A model generated the notes under the pieces. The model had not been told where the DNA came from and did no database searches. It saw nothing but the letters and a program-made list of their open reading frames with translations. A DNA stretch of 64,000 nucleotides from a virus (Duplodnaviria; Heunggongvirae; Uroviricota; Caudoviricetes). This document shows positions 18,825-51,513 of this stretch, one piece after another. The stretch spans positions 20,026 through 84,025 of the IMG/VR virus record IMGVR_UViG_2718218131_000011. One strand, written 5' to 3'. Each line of letters starts with the position of its first letter. Within the stretch, counting starts at the first letter, position 1. A program made the translations under genes and the position numbers.

Positions 18825-21800
18825 TCAACTCTCGCGTAGTCATTCATCAACGGATCATCAATTGACAGTGGTACCGTGCGCATAACGCCCGGCTGAGGCG
18901 TGCTGACCTTTACGACAGTTCCCTGGCCTTTCGCCGAGTCTTTGGTGTGCTCTTCAATCCTGGCAAGTAATGAGGTCATCTGCGCAAACAGCCGCTTCGT
19001 TTCACCATCAAGTGAAACGGTATTATCAGCCAACTGCATTGTCGGCTTGGCACCGGAACCACCAAGGTCACTAATAACCTGTCCGTCTATCTGCATACGA
19101 CCGGTTGGTTGCTGCAAATCGTTGGCGGCAGTCGTCACCTGGGACGTGGAGGCTGGTTCAGGCGCATTATTTTTCCGCATCCCCGGCGAGTTGCGGAGTT
19201 TATCGAATAGTCCATCAATCCCCATTTGTGCGCCGAGTTGGTCAAAGTAACTTGAGTTGCTGGTCACCGGACGCGCCTCTTCAACTGGCATCGGAGTATC
19301 AACATACACATTGCCAGCTGCTGTTGCGGTCCCCTTCCCTCGTGCACGTTCTTCGAGCGTTCCCTGAACGACTTCCCGACGCATACCCCGGCCATTCATG
19401 AATTTGTTGACCAGATCGTTAACGCCAACAGCATTGCCGATTTTGTCTACCAGACCGCCTTTCTCAAACGGGCTATCACCAGGGGTAAACGCCAGGCCAG
19501 TAGACTGATCGATAACAGCGTTATCAGGCAGTGGTCCCCTCACTCCATATTGCGCCCCACCCTGTGCTCCTGCTCCAGGTGTATAGATTTCACCACCTAA
19601 ATAGCGAGCACGATGAGTATTGACCTTGATCGCGTACTCACGGTTTTCTTTCGATAAGTCACCTGTGCCTTTTTTCCACTTATTGATAGTGCCAAACCCA
19701 GCGTTATATGCAGTGATGGCCTCGTTTAAGTCTCCATTGGCTTGCTTCAGATACTTGCTCATGAGAAGAGCCGCAGCTTCTGCCGATTTCACAGGATCAA
19801 ACGATTCACCTTCAGCTAAGCCAGTCTCTTCACGAGCAATCCCCGTGAACTGAAACATTCCCAGAGCACCGGTTTGGGATTTTGCATACGGATTACCACC
19901 AGATTCAGTTGCAGCAATCGCGTAAAGAGTGCCTTCTGGAAGACCATATTTATTCTCTAGTTCAGCAAAATACGGAGCCAACTTATCGAGATTTGCCTTA
20001 CCTTCAGATCCAAGACTTCCGACTTTTACATCCAAGCGGCCATTGTTGTAGGTATCCGCAGCTTTCTGAATGTCATTCCTGGTGCCAGTGGTATTAAGCG
20101 ACGATGATGACGAGCTATTTTGACCAATAGCTTTATCAATTTTCTGCAACGCGCTATTGCCCGTTTCTGCGGCATTTGCATTGATAATCTGATTCGCAGT
20201 TTCTTTAACTGTTTTATTGCTATCTTTCGCCGTGTCCAGTGCCGCATTTATCACGCGGGTAACAATATTAGTCTGTTTGGCATCGGATTCAGTTTTAGAA
20301 TCAGATGTCTCCTGGTGGCTATTAACCGGAGCTTTTAACTCTGGAGCGATTTCTTTCGCATTAGCCTCGCTATTAACCGGAGCTTTTAACTCTGGAGCGA
20401 TTTCTTTCGCATTAGCCTCGCCGATCGGATTGGGTATTTTTGATACAATCATTGCCGCAGGGGTATTTTTAACGGCATCAACCGCTGCATCTAATGCTTT
20501 ACCAGGTAAATTTTTAACCCCATCCCAAATATTACCAGCCGCCTCTTTAATGTGTTTCCCTGGGTTCTTAATGAAATCAATTGCACTATCAATTGCATCA
20601 CTGAAAACCTGTTTCAGGTTATCAACAGTAAAGAAGTCTTTGATGGCATCCAGCTTTTCAAGCAGCTTATTAGATGTATCGCTAAACCATGCTGAAACAG
20701 CATCACCAATCTTTGCTGTGTAATCTTCGAACTTGGTAGAAATGGTGTCGCCAAGGTTAGAAATATATGTTTCTAAGTTGGTAATCCCACTATCAATGGC
20801 CTGGGCAATACTTTCCGTCGAAAATGATTGCAACATATTGCCGATATCCTCAAATCCAAGTGATTTGAGAACCTCACCAATGGCGCTGCTAATACCAGAT
20901 ACCAGTCCCCCCATATCAAGAACATTGGCTAACGTATAAGCGGCTTTTTGCTGGAATGATGGATCTTGTCCTGATTTAAGCCCAAACGCTCGACGTTGCG
21001 CTTCTGTATCATTCCAACCGGTTACCGCATCATAAATACCTCCAGCCACTGTGCCGACTAAGGGAATTGCGCGTAACGCCCCTTTACCAACTGCCTTTAA
21101 TCCAAGTTTACCTGCTGCCCGGGCAGCCAAATCTCCACCTTCATGGGCGATAGTCTTCTTGCCACCACCGCGTAGCATTCCTACAAGTTTCTTTGCCCCC
21201 AGAGCGCCAAAAGCGAGTGCTCCAGCTTTTTTCAGCATGCCACGCCCCATTAACAACGACGCGACGCCACCGGCCCCCTTCCCTAACAGGCTAAATAGTT
21301 TGGACAGCAAGCCGCCCTTCTTTTTCCCGGTGTTTTTGGCTATCTGATCAAGGGCGCTGAGAATCTTGTCATTGCCCTCTTTAATTTCGCTGGTCTGCTC
21401 CTGAAGTTCCTGAACTGTCCGTTTTTGGGTGTTAACCTGAACGACATCGGCACTATTTTGCGATTTACGCCTAAAAAAACCTTTTCTACGGCTGTTATCG
21501 TCATTGCCACAAATCACATCGGCAATAGACTTTCTGGCACCATTAAGCGATCCACCAACTTCTTTTGATATCCCGCCAAGCTCCTTCCCTGCTGCCCACA
21601 ATGGACCAGCAACGGCATAACCTAACGCATCAACGGCACGAGTCTCTGAAGGGTTACCTATGCCTTCAGCTACTTTTGACAGTTTTTTTAATAAACCTGA
21701 TTCAGCATTTAGACGCTCATCATCCTCTTTGCGCCTGGCCTTTTCAGCACGTTCAGCACGGGCATCTTCCGCTGCGGCCTTACTCCCTGACTTTCCAATA

Positions 21801-45911: not shown

Positions 45912-47087
45912 GTGACTATGTTAAGAGCAACAAAAGTACGCATTTACCCGACACCAGAACAGGCAGAGTACCTCAATGCCCAGTTCGGTGCAGTGCGCTT
46001 TGCGTACAACAAAGCTCTTCACATCAAAAAACATGCTTACCAGCGACATGGAGTAAATTTAAGTCCGCGTAACGATCTGAAACCGCTGCTTGCAGTGGCA
46101 AAGAAATCCCGCAGGTATGGATGGCTTAAAGAATATGATTCTATTGCGTTGCAACAGGCGGTAATTAATCTTGATGTGGCATTTTCCAACTTTTTTAATC
46201 CGAAGCTGAAAGCGCGGTTCCCGACGTTTAAACGTAAACACGGAAAACAATCGAGCTATCACTGTGTCGGGATTAAGGTGCTGGATAATGCCATCAAAAT
46301 CCCAAAACTGTCCCTAATAGAAGCACGCCTTCACCGTGAACTTCATGGAAAGCTGAAAAGCATCACTATCACCTGTTCAGCAACGGGGAAATACTATGCT
46401 TCAATTCTCTGTGATGATGGCATGGAAGCTCCGGCAAAACCCACGTTGATATCAACAGTTACTGGCCTAGATATGGGATTATCGCACTTTGCCATCAAGT
46501 CTGATGGGGTAAAAATTGCAAATCCCCGCCATCTCATCAATGCCAGCCGTAATCTGCGACGCAAACAAAAAGCCTTATCCCGCAAGCAAAAGGGAAGCGC
46601 GAATCGTAAAAAGGCCACAATCCGTCTGGCAGCGTTACACGAACGGGTGGCTAATGCCCGTGCTGATTTTCAACACAAGCTCTCTCGTGCAATTGTTGAC
46701 GAAAACCAAGCGGTAATTGTCGAGATGCTGAAAACAGCCAACATGATGAAAAACCACAATCTGGCAAGAGCGATAGGTGATGCAGGCTGGCATAGCTTCA
46801 TCACAAAGCTGGAGTACAAGGCAGCGGAAAAAGGCGTTCACCTAGTAAAACTCGACCAGTGGTTTGCCAGTTCGAAAGCCTGCTATTGTTGTGGTTACAA
46901 AATGCCGGAAATGCCGCTTCATAAACGCATCTGGCGATGCCCTGAATGTGGAGCAGAGCACGACCGCGATATCAATGCGGCACTCAACATCCGGCAAAAA
47001 GGAATACTGGAACTACAGGCGGCGGGACTCGTCGTCTCCGCCCATGGAGGCCAGCGTAAATCCGTCGCACAGACGGTTGTGGCATGA
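45912..47087 (+). CDS. tnpB: TnpB (OrfB) RNA-guided nuclease-type transposon protein, IS200/IS605 family
   Basis: 391 aa; N-terminal MLRATKVRIYPTPEQ...YNKAL; C-terminal zinc finger CYCCG...CPECG with RuvC-like region. Confidence 0.85.
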   Translation: MTMLRATKVRIYPTPEQAEYLNAQFGAVRFAYNKALHIKKHAYQRHGVNLSPRNDLKPLLAVAKKSRRYGWLKEYDSIALQQAVINLDVAFSNFFNPKLKARFPTFKRKHGKQSSYHCVGIKVLDNAIKIPKLSLIEARLHRELHGKLKSITITCSATGKYYASILCDDGMEAPAKPTLISTVTGLDMGLSHFAIKSDGVKIANPRHLINASRNLRRKQKALSRKQKGSANRKKATIRLAALHERVANARADFQHKLSRAIVDENQAVIVEMLKTANMMKNHNLARAIGDAGWHSFITKLEYKAAEKGVHLVKLDQWFASSKACYCCGYKMPEMPLHKRIWRCPECGAEHDRDINAALNIRQKGILELQAAGLVVSAHGGQRKSVAQTVVA

Positions 47088-47776
47088 GAAGTGGGAAGCC
47101 TCGCCCGACAGGGCGGGGAGCAGTCACAAACTGACCATTAAAGTAAATGCAAACGATGATCTGATGATGGTTGCGGCCTAAGAAGCCTGACACCACGGGG
47201 TTGTCCCCGTCTGTGTATTAGGGAACGAGGAGGCATAACAGGCAGGGGCGCTGGTTTGATTAACCAGATGAACGAGAAGGGGCCATCTTCTGGTCAGCGT
47301 CCTTACCTGTTACGTCCTTTTTCATTCAGCGTAACAGCCGGTTCTTAACAGCCTTTGGGTAGAGTTCCTCGTATTTACGAGTATATTCCGTCATGCTGAA
47401 GGCGCTAATCACGCTGGAAGCTAGGGGGGGATCCCCTGTTACCGAATTGCAGCCAGGGCGCGGGTGTAGTGGTTTATTGATTGTTACGGCGCATTCTGGG
47501 CTGTACTAAATTTCTGCGCCTAATACTACTACACTTGCCGTTTACTGATGTGTGGTATGTTGCATATGGGCAACTGCAAAATGGCATCTGAATCGATCGC
47601 AGTTTGGCATTCGAATCGATCATGATTTGGCATCCATCTCCGATCACAGTTTGGCATCACAATCGATCACGATTTGGCATGCTTCCGATCATTGATTGGC
47701 ATCCTGCCAGTCACTCCGGGAATTAACTCTTTTCACCACAGTCTCCATTGCCGTGTTTAAACCAGTGGAGACGTCA

Positions 47777-49342
47777 ATGTCCAGAAAGAGAAAATCCAGG
47801 AGCACTATGGAAACCTGTTTTAAGATTCTTCAGCTCAAGTTCGACAAGAAGCTGACTAACCGTTGTATCGGACTGACGTTACACATCAGCGCCTCAACCG
47901 TTTTTGAGGTTCTTGCCCGCTTCAAAGCCTCTTCTCTGTCATGGCCATTACCTGCTGATATATCCCATGACACGCTGGAGAAACTCATTTTTCCGCCCAA
48001 AGACACCTTTGCATCAGAGCTTGTAATGCCTGACATGTTGTACCTCGATACGGAAATGAGAAAACCAGGTGTGACGCGGCAACTGTTGTGGATGGAATAC
48101 AAGGCACAGGCGGGTAACAAAGCGATGGGATACTCGCACTTCTGCCGTTGCTACCGGGAGTGGAAAAAAACGCGACGTCTCTCCATGCGCCAGGAGCATC
48201 GTGCCGGCGAAAAGCTTTTTATCGACTTCTGTGGTCCTACGGTTCCTGTTATTAATCCGGACACCGGTGAGATACGCCGCGTGGCAATCTTCGTGGCCGT
48301 AATGGGGGCGTCCAACTATACCTACGTTGAAGCGTGCGAAGGTCAGGACATGATGTCATGGTTAAATGCCCACAGCCGTTGCCTGACCTTCCTGGGCGGC
48401 GTACCGAAGCTGCTCATCCCCGATAACCTCAGAAGCGCAGTGAAAAAGGCCGATCGATATGAGCCTGTCATCAACGACAGTTATCAGGCACTGGCTGAGC
48501 ACTATGGCACGGTTATCATCCCGGCCCGACCACGCAAACCTAAAGATAAACCAAAAGCAGAAAACGGCGTCCTCATCGTCGAACGATGGCTTCTTGCCCG
48601 CATCCGTAATGAAACCTTCCACACGCTCAGGGCGCTGAATGCGCGCCTTAGGGAGTTACTGACAGACATGAATAACCGGCCAATGAAGGGGTACGGCAAT
48701 CAAACCCGTGCAGAACGCTTCCGCATACTGGATGCGCCAGCACTCTCTCCGCTGCCTCTGGCACCTTATGAATACACGGAATACAAAGCTGTGAAGGTTG
48801 GCCCTGACTACCACGTTGAATATGCCCGTCACTGGTACTCCGTTCCACACGAACTGGTCGGTCAGCGTCTGTCACTGAAGGCGGGGCAGTCGGTGGTACA
48901 GCTCTGGCACAAGGGGCAGTGTGTGGCGCAACATCCGCGCAGCACACATGAATATAAACACACAACCAATCCGCTTCACATGCCAGAGCGCCACCGGCAG
49001 CACGGGACATGGACACCGGAACGCCTGATCGAGCAGGGAAAACGTACGGGCCCGTCCACAGGCCGGGTGGTTGAATCCATGCTGAAGGCAAAACCCCATC
49101 CGGAACTGGCTTATCGTGCAGTTCTGGGGCTGCTGGCACTTCAGAAAAAATACGGCCCGGAACGGCTGGAAAAGGCCTGTTACGTTGCCCTGCACTATAA
49201 CGCCCCTGACAGACGCTTTATCGACAATCTGCTGCGTCACCATCGGGAGAACCTGGAGCTTCCATTATCCCGCCAGGGCGAACAACATCCGGCATATGCT
49301 TCAGAGCATGAAAACCTGCGTGGTCCGGGCTACTACCACTGA
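47777..49342 (+). CDS. istA: IS21-family transposase IstA
   Basis: Start at MSRKRK with GGAG RBS; HTH N-terminus and DDE-type core. Confidence 0.85.
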   Translation: MSRKRKSRSTMETCFKILQLKFDKKLTNRCIGLTLHISASTVFEVLARFKASSLSWPLPADISHDTLEKLIFPPKDTFASELVMPDMLYLDTEMRKPGVTRQLLWMEYKAQAGNKAMGYSHFCRCYREWKKTRRLSMRQEHRAGEKLFIDFCGPTVPVINPDTGEIRRVAIFVAVMGASNYTYVEACEGQDMMSWLNAHSRCLTFLGGVPKLLIPDNLRSAVKKADRYEPVINDSYQALAEHYGTVIIPARPRKPKDKPKAENGVLIVERWLLARIRNETFHTLRALNARLRELLTDMNNRPMKGYGNQTRAERFRILDAPALSPLPLAPYEYTEYKAVKVGPDYHVEYARHWYSVPHELVGQRLSLKAGQSVVQLWHKGQCVAQHPRSTHEYKHTTNPLHMPERHRQHGTWTPERLIEQGKRTGPSTGRVVESMLKAKPHPELAYRAVLGLLALQKKYGPERLEKACYVALHYNAPDRRFIDNLLRHHRENLELPLSRQGEQHPAYASEHENLRGPGYYH

Positions 49343-49358
49343 CAGAAGGAACAACAGT

Positions 49359-50114
49359 ATGAGTGATAACCTGTTAAACAAACTGACCCAACTGAAACTC
49401 CCGGCGATGGCCGGGAGCCTGATACGGCAGCGGGAAACGCCTCAGACCTACGACGAACTGTCGTTCGAGGAAAGGCTGACGCTGCTGGTTGATGACGAGC
49501 TTCTGAGCAGGGAAAACAGCCGTGTGGCACGGTTGAGAAAAAATGCCGGCCTGAAATACCAGGCAACACCGGAAGGGCTGCGCTATCCGGCCTCAAGAGG
49601 TCTGCGGGCTGAACAGATGAGAGAACTGCTGAACGGCCACTACATAACCCACAGGAAAAACCTGCTGATAACCGGTCCGACAGGATGTGGCAAGAGCTGG
49701 ATAGCCAATGCGCTGGGCGAACAGGCATGTCGACAGAAACACAGCGTCCGGTACTGTAGAACCGGGCGATTACTGGAACAACTGGCTCAGGGACGTGTTG
49801 ATGGCAGCTGGCTGAAATATCTGAAACAGTTGCAAAAAATACAGGTTCTAATCCTGGACGATCTGGGGCTGGAACAGTTAAGTAACGCCCAGTGTAATGA
49901 CCTTCTGGAGCTCATAGAGGATCGTTACGGACAAAGCAGCACGATAGTGGTAAGCCAGTTCCCGGTAGATAAATGGCATGGTCTGATGGAGAACCCAACA
50001 ACAGCAGATGCCATCCTGGACAGACTGGTACATAACTCACACCGGGTGGTCCTTCAGGGAGAGTCACTGAGGAAAAATCCCCCGGTAGTGGAAAGCAGCG
50101 AAAAAACGCGTTAA
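49359..50114 (+). CDS. istB: IS21-family helper ATPase IstB
   Basis: Start MSDNLLNKLTQLKLP with AAGGA RBS; Walker A GPTGCGKS; Walker B VLILDDLG. Confidence 0.85.
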   Translation: MSDNLLNKLTQLKLPAMAGSLIRQRETPQTYDELSFEERLTLLVDDELLSRENSRVARLRKNAGLKYQATPEGLRYPASRGLRAEQMRELLNGHYITHRKNLLITGPTGCGKSWIANALGEQACRQKHSVRYCRTGRLLEQLAQGRVDGSWLKYLKQLQKIQVLILDDLGLEQLSNAQCNDLLELIEDRYGQSSTIVVSQFPVDKWHGLMENPTTADAILDRLVHNSHRVVLQGESLRKNPPVVESSEKTR

Positions 50115-50577
50115 AAAGCGGTAGAAAAAGTTAAGTTCCCGGTTGATCGAATGGATGCGAATCGCTGATCGGACTTCGATGCCAATCCGTGATCGAATAG
50201 AGCGGAATACGCAGGCAACACACTCAAGCCTGATGCAGCACGGTCAGGTAGGGGACGCCGACCTAATGTCTCGCCCTGCAAGGGCGGACGAAAGTAGATC
50301 ACTATTCCGCGCAGCTATTTAGAAAGAACAGGTATTGAATTACCTGGAGAACAACTTACTTACGTTTCCGCCACACCTTCGCTAGTTACTTTATGATGAA
50401 TGATGGTAATATTCTGGTATTGTAACGAGTGCTCAGATATACTTACATCTAAATAACAATGATATATGTTCAATTTAACCTTGAATATTTTGTAATGTTA
50501 CACGACTTTAAAATTTAGAAGAAGAGGATTCGGTTGAATCCGATATTAAATCTGAGACAGGAATATAAGGTTACACG

Positions 50578-51513
50578 ATGAAGCTTAAAAAACTACAATC
50601 TCTTGATTTTGTGAATGATTTTATGAGTCACCTAGAAACTGATTTTGAAAAAGAATTATTCACAGCTTGTTTGCGAAATTATGCATCACATGGCAACCCA
50701 TTACGTTTTCATAACTTTGCATTTTCAATTCGCGAGCTAATAAAGCATATTATCGAGAAAAAATCTCCGAATGATAAATTATTACAAGCATCGTGGTATA
50801 AGAGAGAACATGAACATTACGAAATATCTAGAAGACAGCGTTTAAAATACTGTTCTCAAGCTAAAATTTCAGATGCGTACTTGGGGGAAGAGTTCCTGGA
50901 GGAGTCGAATGAAAGAATAGATGAGATGCTTAAGCTTTATTTCTTCTTAAATAAATATACGCATATAACAGAGAAATATATGCATCCATCACCTCAAGAG
51001 TTCTTCCTGAAGGCCAAACAAATACTGCAGATCGCTACAGAAATACTAAATGGTATACATATTTGTAGAGATGAATTAATTCGTACTCTCGAAGATAAAA
51101 TTAGAAATGCAGTTATTGACACGGCGGTAAGCTCTATGCCTGAAAACCTAGTGACTATCGCGAATCATGCGTATGTAGATTACACTGAAGTCGAAGAATT
51201 TGGAATCACGTCGATTGATGATGAGTACATCAATATATATGCTTCCGGTACTGTCTATGTTACTCAAGAATATGGTTCTAGGAATGATGGGGTTAGCCTA
51301 GAAGAAAGTTATCCGTTCACGTTGCACATGGCTTCTCACTTAGACTCTCCTGAAACATTTGAAGTCATATCTGAAGCTTTAGAGGTAGACACTTCATCGT
51401 GGTACGATGATGGGGAGCAGGAGGATCAAATGATGGATATGGAAAGAAATGAAATTCATCGAATATCTGTTGCACCCCCAGACTTTGAGATGGATGACAA
51501 TGTACCATTCTAA
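50578..51513 (+). CDS. hypothetical cargo protein ending in an SSB C-terminal-tail-like peptide
   Basis: 311-aa ORF in AT-rich DNA with AT-rich promoter-like leader; no recognisable catalytic motif; C-terminus VAPPDFEMDDNVPF versus [14 protein letters not shown]. Confidence 0.6.
   Translation: MKLKKLQSLDFVNDFMSHLETDFEKELFTACLRNYASHGNPLRFHNFAFSIRELIKHIIEKKSPNDKLLQASWYKREHEHYEISRRQRLKYCSQAKISDAYLGEEFLEESNERIDEMLKLYFFLNKYTHITEKYMHPSPQEFFLKAKQILQIATEILNGIHICRDELIRTLEDKIRNAVIDTAVSSMPENLVTIANHAYVDYTEVEEFGITSIDDEYINIYASGTVYVTQEYGSRNDGVSLEESYPFTLHMASHLDSPETFEVISEALEVDTSSWYDDGEQEDQMMDMERNEIHRISVAPPDFEMDDNVPF

Follow-up and report, generated by a model that had tools for sequence, protein, structure and literature searches.

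The locus described here raises the question of why a protein that is not an SSB (a protein binding single-stranded DNA) should end in the way an SSB does. The stretch of DNA in question comprises 64,000 nucleotides (positions 20,026 to 84,025 of IMG/VR virus record IMGVR_UViG_2718218131_000011, classified within the Caudoviricetes) and is referred to here as the window. At positions 50578..51513 of its plus strand lies an intact, standalone open reading frame (ORF) with an ATG start and a stop codon at 51511-51513, which encodes a 311-amino acid protein of the pP_pnuc family whose C-terminal residues are APPDFEMDDNVPF and whose longer C-terminal stretch reads RISVAPPDFEMDDNVPF. As all homologues begin with MKLKKL, the assigned start codon is considered right. 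A sequence-only reading had proposed that this non-SSB protein carries a terminus resembling the C-terminal peptide of SSB (SSB-Ct) and that an ssb gene at the start of the window ends in the same kind of tip. The coordinates and the ending of the former were confirmed, and the latter (1..483, plus strand, frame 1), the 3' part of the element's own ssb cut at the window edge, encodes an SSB with an oligonucleotide/oligosaccharide-binding (OB) fold (Pfam SSB, 4.6e-40) and provides a comparator with an authentic SSB tip. In the 311-amino acid protein no match to Pfam SSB (PF00436) or to an OB fold was obtained at E values up to 1, and the AlphaFold2 model shows a helical domain followed by a beta-sheet domain, unlike an OB-fold SSB; the protein is not an SSB. 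In bacterial genome maintenance the C-terminal tip of SSB serves as the central docking peptide, and the answer that we favour, at slightly better than an even chance, is that the ORF codes for a lysogen-expressed effector with a predicted nuclease core, the tail of which would be a genuine SSB-Ct-type docking motif for SSB-tip-binding proteins.

The last 34 residues of the protein fall beyond the family domains and consist of two parts. An acidic linker, DGEQEDQMMDMERNEIHRISVAPPDFEM (residues 278-305, 51409..51492, plus strand), lies outside the Pfam and PADLOC models and is predicted by AlphaFold2 to form a low-confidence helix at residues 280-293 and then to become disordered, with the predicted local distance difference test (pLDDT) dropping from 61 to below 50. 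The linker is followed by the tip DDNVPF (residues 306-311, 51493..51510, plus strand), which stands directly before the stop codon and so presents a terminal Phe with a free carboxylate. For comparison, the SSB-Ct hexapeptide of E. coli is given as DDDIPF in PMC5872125, and SSB partners chiefly bind the side chain and carboxylate of the terminal Phe as well as nearby acidic residues (PMC6393309); the phage proteins Red-beta and Orf bind SSB-Ct likewise, and the F177A replacement in SSB abolishes this binding (PMC6393309). Like the bacterial SSB-Ct (...DFDDDIPF), the tip of the window protein stands at the extreme C-terminus behind a disordered acidic linker and has Phe at its end, Pro at -1, and acidic residues at -4 and -5; it differs in having V at -2 and N at -3 and in being carried by a protein lacking the SSB domain.

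Homologues of the Enterobacterales clade, which are 55-100% identical and 305-316 amino acids long, always possess an acidic extension of about 30-39 residues. In contrast, the members of a sister gammaproteobacterial clade (Pseudomonas, Shewanella, Vibrio, and others) are 277 amino acids long, stop at ...DTSSWYE, and have no tail, so the tail is a clade-specific add-on. When 18 distinct tails of the Enterobacterales clade were aligned from their right ends, F was found at position 0 in all 18 and P at position -1 in 15, and acidic residues were present at -4 in 17/18 and at -5 in 17/18 tails, while every remaining position had an entropy of at least 2 bits. Position -3 is occupied by N, S, or D and position -2 is variable, so that the match to DDDIPF is partial at these two positions. 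The linker sequence is not conserved between orthologues. Because only the F, the P, and the acidic residues at -4/-5 are kept, [DE][DE]xxPF-COOH on a freely drifting linker is regarded as the selected unit, an arrangement that follows the principle of the disordered linker and tip of SSB, and the alignment shows purifying selection on the tip; the conserved positions correspond to the binding determinants of SSB-Ct, namely the terminal Phe, its carboxylate, and adjacent acidic residues. The expectation that homologues should keep the tail is thus borne out for the close clade, in which the acidic PF end persists across 55-100% core identity, the more distant 277-residue relatives being without a tail. 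One homologue ends in ...STSF, a Pro-to-Ser change which is also that of the classical ssb-113 allele. The similarity between the DNA encoding the tail and the 3' end of the element's ssb does not go beyond what common codons impose. This gives no indication of recent copying, and recent capture of the ssb 3' end as the source of the tail was rejected on this ground.

Similar tips are not restricted to this clade. FDDDVPF, DNDIPF, DDDLPF, DNEPF, and KESPF were found in four further lineages of the pP_pnuc family, the nearest relatives of which are mostly tail-less. In a lineage from Yersinia and Huaxiibacter, a 70-residue extension ends in EFLDNDIPF (P0122) or GSDDDLPF (L033); the identity between these two proteins is 57%, and the tip was retained in spite of divergence in the rest of the extension. 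The protein P0169 terminates in NNFDDDVPF and, as for the Yersinia/Huaxiibacter lineage, its closest core relatives are tail-less. Two other proteins with the termini ADNEPF (P0199) and KESPF (P0180) each belong to their own small cluster of tailed, F-ending proteins. Altogether, 10/31 extension-bearing lineages of the family end in F and 5/31 in PF, compared with a background of 4.1% F and 1.5% PF among 410 control ORFs (binomial probabilities of about 3e-7 for F and 8e-5 for PF). The PF background is conservative, as all 6 PF-ending control ORFs are themselves members of the pP_pnuc family. On these frequencies and on the conservation within the clade, the resemblance of the tip to SSB-Ct exceeds chance. 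The view that a low-complexity acidic tail ends in PF by accident and that the resemblance is meaningless draws on the shortness of the motif, but it leaves unexplained that the F, the P, and two acidic positions are kept in orthologues down to 55% identity and that the tip recurs in separate lineages, and we consider it very improbable. From the pattern of tailed and tail-less lineages it seems instead that an SSB-type tip was repeatedly gained or re-invented in the pP_pnuc family and kept, and hence that it is probably a working docking tag. The interpretation of the sequence-only reading is therefore supported in part, since its suggestion that the terminus could be functional gains from the tip being kept and recurrent.

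The tip is attached to a core that belongs to a recognized but uncharacterised family. Two Pfam domains annotated as "predicted pPIWI-associating nuclease" were matched in order and over their full length, the scores being 118.9 bits for one and 115.5 bits for the other where the curated cut-offs are 26.3 and 25. The first, pP_pnuc_1 (residues 17-152, 50626..51033, plus strand; 1.5e-34), is all-helical with AlphaFold2 helices at a pLDDT of around 90; the second, pP_pnuc_2 (residues 163-276, 51064..51405, plus strand; 2.1e-33), begins with a long helix which is followed by antiparallel strands, three long and one short. The same core corresponds to the PADLOC model Aga_Nuclease, which matched residues 17-277 with an E value of 1.2e-62 over profile positions 5-267 of 267, and nothing besides Aga_Nuclease was found for the protein in PADLOC at E values up to 1. 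The window protein has the domains and conserved residues of these models and differs from them in its additional C-terminal tail and in having no Argonaute/PIWI gene or conserved partner nearby. In the AlphaFold2 model, which was obtained with 55 homologues and has a mean pLDDT of 85.7, the helical domain spans residues 1-195, the sheet residues 197-263, and the weak helix residues 280-293. A comparison of this model with solved structures and with viral predicted structures gave no significant likeness, and so the term "nuclease" stays a prediction of the Pfam authors.

Among 211 diverse members of the family, R52, E53, W73, R85, T128, H129, G224, G233, and P246 are near-invariant; R52, E53, R85, T128, and H129 are conserved at 93-100% and D271 at 84%, and all of them are present in the window protein. 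R52, E53, W73, R85, T128, and H129 are located within pP_pnuc_1, and R52/E53, R85, and T128-H129 might form the active site of the predicted nuclease. The family comprises 769 clusters at 50% identity (E up to 1e-3), nearly always consists of a single protein of about 275-285 amino acids, and in most clusters has no tail. One distant member of 405 amino acids (P0249) carries, fused to the N-terminal side of pP_pnuc_1 and pP_pnuc_2, a nucleic acid-binding ASCH domain that scored 23.1 bits against a cut-off of 21.2. This fusion fits a nucleic acid-directed function and hints that the core may work with readers of nucleic acids or modified bases.

Several assignments to known nucleases were considered and rejected. 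The RNxxxH motif at residues 33-38 might recall a HEPN RNase, but it is clade-specific, no Rx4-6H motif is conserved family-wide, and fold matches were insignificant. In the three-gene pPIWI-RE operon that Burroughs et al. described in 2013, a protein with a helical domain, a zinc ribbon, and a restriction endonuclease fold precedes a DinG helicase and pPIWI-RE (PMC3702460); the window protein shows no zinc ribbon or restriction endonuclease match, and no DinG or PIWI gene lies downstream. Membership in a system associated with prokaryotic Argonautes was likewise discarded, as no Argonaute/PIWI gene is adjacent to the gene either in the window or in identical plasmids, where dmt, TnpB, IS21, a 233-amino acid ORF, and baseplate genes are found.

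The acidity of the tail could be taken to speak for a function within its own polypeptide. The 311-amino acid protein is unusually acidic (net charge -27, of which -18 is contributed by the core and -9 by the tail, and with about -17 in pP_pnuc_2). According to a serious rival explanation, the acidic tail would act in cis by folding onto the nucleic acid-binding surface of the same protein, as an autoinhibitory mimic that is displaced by the substrate. E. coli SSB, T7 gp2.5, and T4 gp32 have tails that behave in this way, and docking to other proteins would not be needed. Acidity is an almost constant property of C-terminal extensions in the family, including those without a final F (41% D/E on average in 23 such "other" tails), and the N-domain contains conserved arginines. 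However, general acidity explains neither the strict retention of P and F amid drift nor why near-exact SSB tips have arisen repeatedly, and the core is itself net -18. Intramolecular docking of the tail was also rejected as a modelling result, since residues 295-311 were disordered with a pLDDT below 50 in two AlphaFold2 runs, one with the full alignment and one with a tail-only alignment, the second model being poor overall (mean pLDDT 60.5). Autoinhibition in cis as the whole explanation therefore appears unlikely to us, although by analogy with SSB both cis-autoinhibition and docking can coexist.

Whether such a tagged core would be active in the lysogen or during infection can be judged from the genomic context of relatives. 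In Klebsiella aerogenes, Enterobacter ludwigii, and two further assemblies, a cI gene (Phage_CI_repr), int, and the tailed gene follow each other on the same strand, the tailed gene after a gap of 1-17 bp. It comes last among the genes of a 186/P2-like prophage, and the unrelated genes beyond it vary from host to host. Loci from Pantoea and Yersinia show the same order of three ORFs, as judged by size and homology alone, while in Edwardsiella the tailed gene resides in a different prophage, beside an AAA_13 ATPase. Since cI and int are co-oriented and directly upstream, the tailed gene is interpreted as a moron of the lysogenic operon, that is, as a gene expressed in the lysogen. Prophage exclusion genes such as lambda rexAB and P2 old/tin/fun classically sit in such positions, and like them the gene studied here is an AT-rich accessory gene that ends a cI-int operon or lies in the variable region of a P1-like plasmid, but there is no relation in sequence or fold. 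Its place at the end of the cI-int operon in 186-like prophages would make a role as superinfection-exclusion or abortive-infection effector the likeliest. Given the same context, a simple inhibitor of host repair, as had been suggested initially, is less favoured than a lysogen-expressed effector for which the tip would serve targeting or sensing.

No recurrent neighbour emerged from an all-against-all clustering of flanking ORFs in 34 species-level loci, and the gene is therefore regarded as autonomous. A partner in the manner of a toxin-antitoxin pair or a small downstream gene was rejected as well, since nothing downstream is conserved and host-differing genes follow in the prophages. A scan of ten large neighbours of relatives detected no PIWI domain, and among those neighbours was a UvrD-like helicase; with neither a PIWI gene nor a conserved neighbour, the Argonaute-linked names given by Pfam and PADLOC do not describe the locus. 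Tail-less or distant members of the family keep defence-island-like company without Argonaute. In L031 the family member directly follows hsdM-hsdS-hsdR of a type I restriction-modification system, in L033 it follows an nSTAND3 NTPase, in L003 it precedes a SIR2_2 protein of 1,277 amino acids, and in L016 a NERD-kinase is nearby.

These surroundings bear on another explanation, in which the protein would serve the mobile element as a competitor or decoy: the tip would titrate SSB-interacting proteins such as exonuclease I (ExoI/SbcB) or RecQ, thereby protecting single-stranded DNA intermediates or blunting defences that depend on these enzymes, and the core would be a mere scaffold or DNA mimic. 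The net charge of -27 suits such a role, known DNA-mimic anti-restriction proteins being likewise very acidic. The phage-plasmid that carries the gene also has an ssb of its own whose product shows the same tip, and competition with SbcB has been proposed for an SSB-like protein of a phage that ends in an FDDDIPF tip (bioRxiv 10.64898/2026.04.29.721553). A scaffold, however, would hardly account for a core that is kept across 769 mostly tail-less clusters with R52, R85, and H129 near-invariant, which argues for an autonomous activity, nor for the defence-island-like neighbourhoods of tail-less members, and the co-orientation of the prophage gene with cI-int points to expression in the lysogen and not in early infection. 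Pure competition is thus a doubtful explanation in our estimation.

In one clade carried by temperate phages of Enterobacterales, an acidic, disordered linker (about 30-39 residues) with [DE][DE]xxPF-COOH at its end has been appended to a 277-residue core. In the mechanism that we prefer, docking by an effector core, SSB-interacting proteins would receive the terminal Phe and the free carboxylate of the tip in the hydrophobic pocket and basic lip that they use for SSB, candidate partners being ExoI/SbcB, RecQ, PriA, chi, RecO, and RecG of the host or Red-beta/Orf/RecT-type proteins of phages. Family membership, the anatomy of the tail, selection on the tip, its recurrence, and the genomic context are shown by the sequences, whereas binding to SSB-Ct pockets, nuclease activity, and a part in defence are inferred. 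Docking might work in two ways. The tether might place the effector core on host enzymes that process single-stranded DNA or on the replisome, or the tip might be a bait, so that a phage protein in need of SSB engages and activates the effector. A more elaborate version of the latter, to which we give little probability, is an integrated decoy in which a lysogen-expressed immune effector displays the SSB peptide of the host and is released or activated by an SSB-tip binder of a superinfecting phage (Red-beta, RecT, or Orf-like); a phage recombinase, helicase, primase, or mediator that grabs the SSB C-terminus would then bind the effector instead. If this were true, an indispensable phage-host contact would have become an infection sensor, and the repeated gains of the tip would reflect selection for bait.

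The nearest mechanistic precedent for a tail of this kind is the helicase-primase gp4 of phage T7, a non-SSB protein of a mobile element whose acidic C-terminal tail binds a basic patch of the polymerase in competition with the tail of the SSB gp2.5. Unlike the tail of T7 gp4, the tip of the window protein copies the host-type SSB-Ct. In order to see which viral genes end in the same hexapeptide, IMG/VR was scanned for genes ending in DDDIPF-TAA, which yielded 121 ORFs. Twenty-seven of the 121 were not recognised by an iterative SSB profile, although some of these may be divergent SSBs. Among the 27 are a 562-amino acid superfamily 2 helicase (L067; ResIII, Helicase_C, and a zinc ribbon) and a 520-amino acid archaeo-eukaryotic primase (L156; AEP-TOTE). 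T7 gp4 and these two enzymes belong to the replisome of lytic replication, whereas the window protein is a predicted nuclease in the accessory position of a lysogen-expressed gene. They also include a probably helical family (M..F[IV]EAL..KYEAEI...) that recurs in several loci (L048, L058, L064, L089, L119, L149), with members of about 73-76 residues which all end in DDDIPF; it has no Pfam match and is not seen by the SSB profile, and its members may be small phage proteins built around the SSB tip. Judged from these termini, the SSB tip gives the impression of a tag that mobile elements can carry from protein to protein, and the viral scan suggests that SSB tips on non-SSB proteins are commoner than usually assumed.

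In current work, SSB, ExoI, and C-tip proteins appear as triggers or modulators of anti-phage systems, and the central place of SSB, single-stranded DNA, and ExoI in the activation of several defence systems makes the protein described here timely. For Retron-Eco8, Hna, AbpAB, DARNA/PD-T7-3, and DRT10-SbcB the common theme is that phage replication is signalled through the SSB hub and its partners. These systems sense phage SSB or SSB-bound single-stranded DNA, and none is reported to have an SSB tip of its own. DARNA/PD-T7-3 is a HEPN protein that is unrelated to the window protein. Our literature search found no paper on an experimental study of the pP_pnuc family and none on an SSB tip borne by a non-SSB protein that is nuclease-like or in a defence context. 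An uncharacterised and widespread predicted-nuclease family that repeatedly acquired the SSB peptide when borne by temperate phages would be a natural case of hub-peptide mimicry by an effector of mobile elements, and one gene with a 6-residue tag offers a simple entry both to pP_pnuc function and to the exploitation of the SSB interactome in phage-phage and phage-host conflict.

The element that carries the gene in the window is considered a P1/P7-like phage-plasmid because rdgC, PmgS, and RepB/ParAB-type replication and partition genes lie near the gene in pHYEC7-mcr1 and pE148-2; DdrB (with a ddrB-ParB domain), a porin, TnpB, and an IS21 element are also encoded in the window. About 24 plasmids hold identical or 98%-identical copies of the gene; almost all of them come from E. 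coli and are typed as non-mobilizable, and an examined plasmid with the identical gene sequence has an IncY replicon. The gene is carried by 18 of 5,426 complete E. coli genomes, with 18 of 19 copies being plasmid-borne; tblastn against INPHARED phage genomes gave no match to the 311-amino acid protein. In pHYEC7-mcr1 and pE148-2 it is located between the Dam-type methyltransferase gene dmt and baseplate/tail genes. The tailed gene and the neighbouring minus-strand ORF form AT-rich islands with 35-39% GC in a backbone of about 48-50%, and no tRNAs or Rfam families were found around the tailed gene. The ORF is thus cargo of this phage-plasmid, a self-contained gene that was acquired horizontally.

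An IS21-family element with istA and istB (47575..50213, plus strand; Pfam rve/Mu-transpos_C_2 and IstB_IS21) sits 364 bp upstream of the tailed gene. It is absent from the otherwise 99.9%-identical pHYEC7-mcr1, and the blastn alignment breakpoints that delimit it share a 6-bp overlap, as a target duplication would give. The IS21 element itself does not belong to the gene, the transcription of which it could nevertheless influence. A TnpB gene (45912-47087, plus strand; OrfB_IS605, a Cas12f1-like TNB domain, and a helix-turn-helix) lies between dmt and the cargo gene, and as it is present in pHYEC7-mcr1 and absent from pE148-2, the interval between dmt and the baseplate genes is considered an insertion hotspot. 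On the other side of the cargo gene, the minus-strand ORF at 52245-52946 constitutes the second AT-rich island (35-37% GC) and encodes a 233-amino acid protein with a hydrophobic C-terminal segment (phrog_25194, unknown function). This protein had no Pfam match and only weak PADLOC matches (PDC-M64B, 0.002; LeoBC, 0.0035), its ORF is absent from pE148-2, and it may be another accessory or exclusion gene. At the start of the window, the ssb gene is adjoined by a complete OmpC/OmpF-type porin gene (717-1829, minus strand; Pfam Porin_1, 2.3e-148), and such a phage-borne porin could alter receptor availability for other phages.
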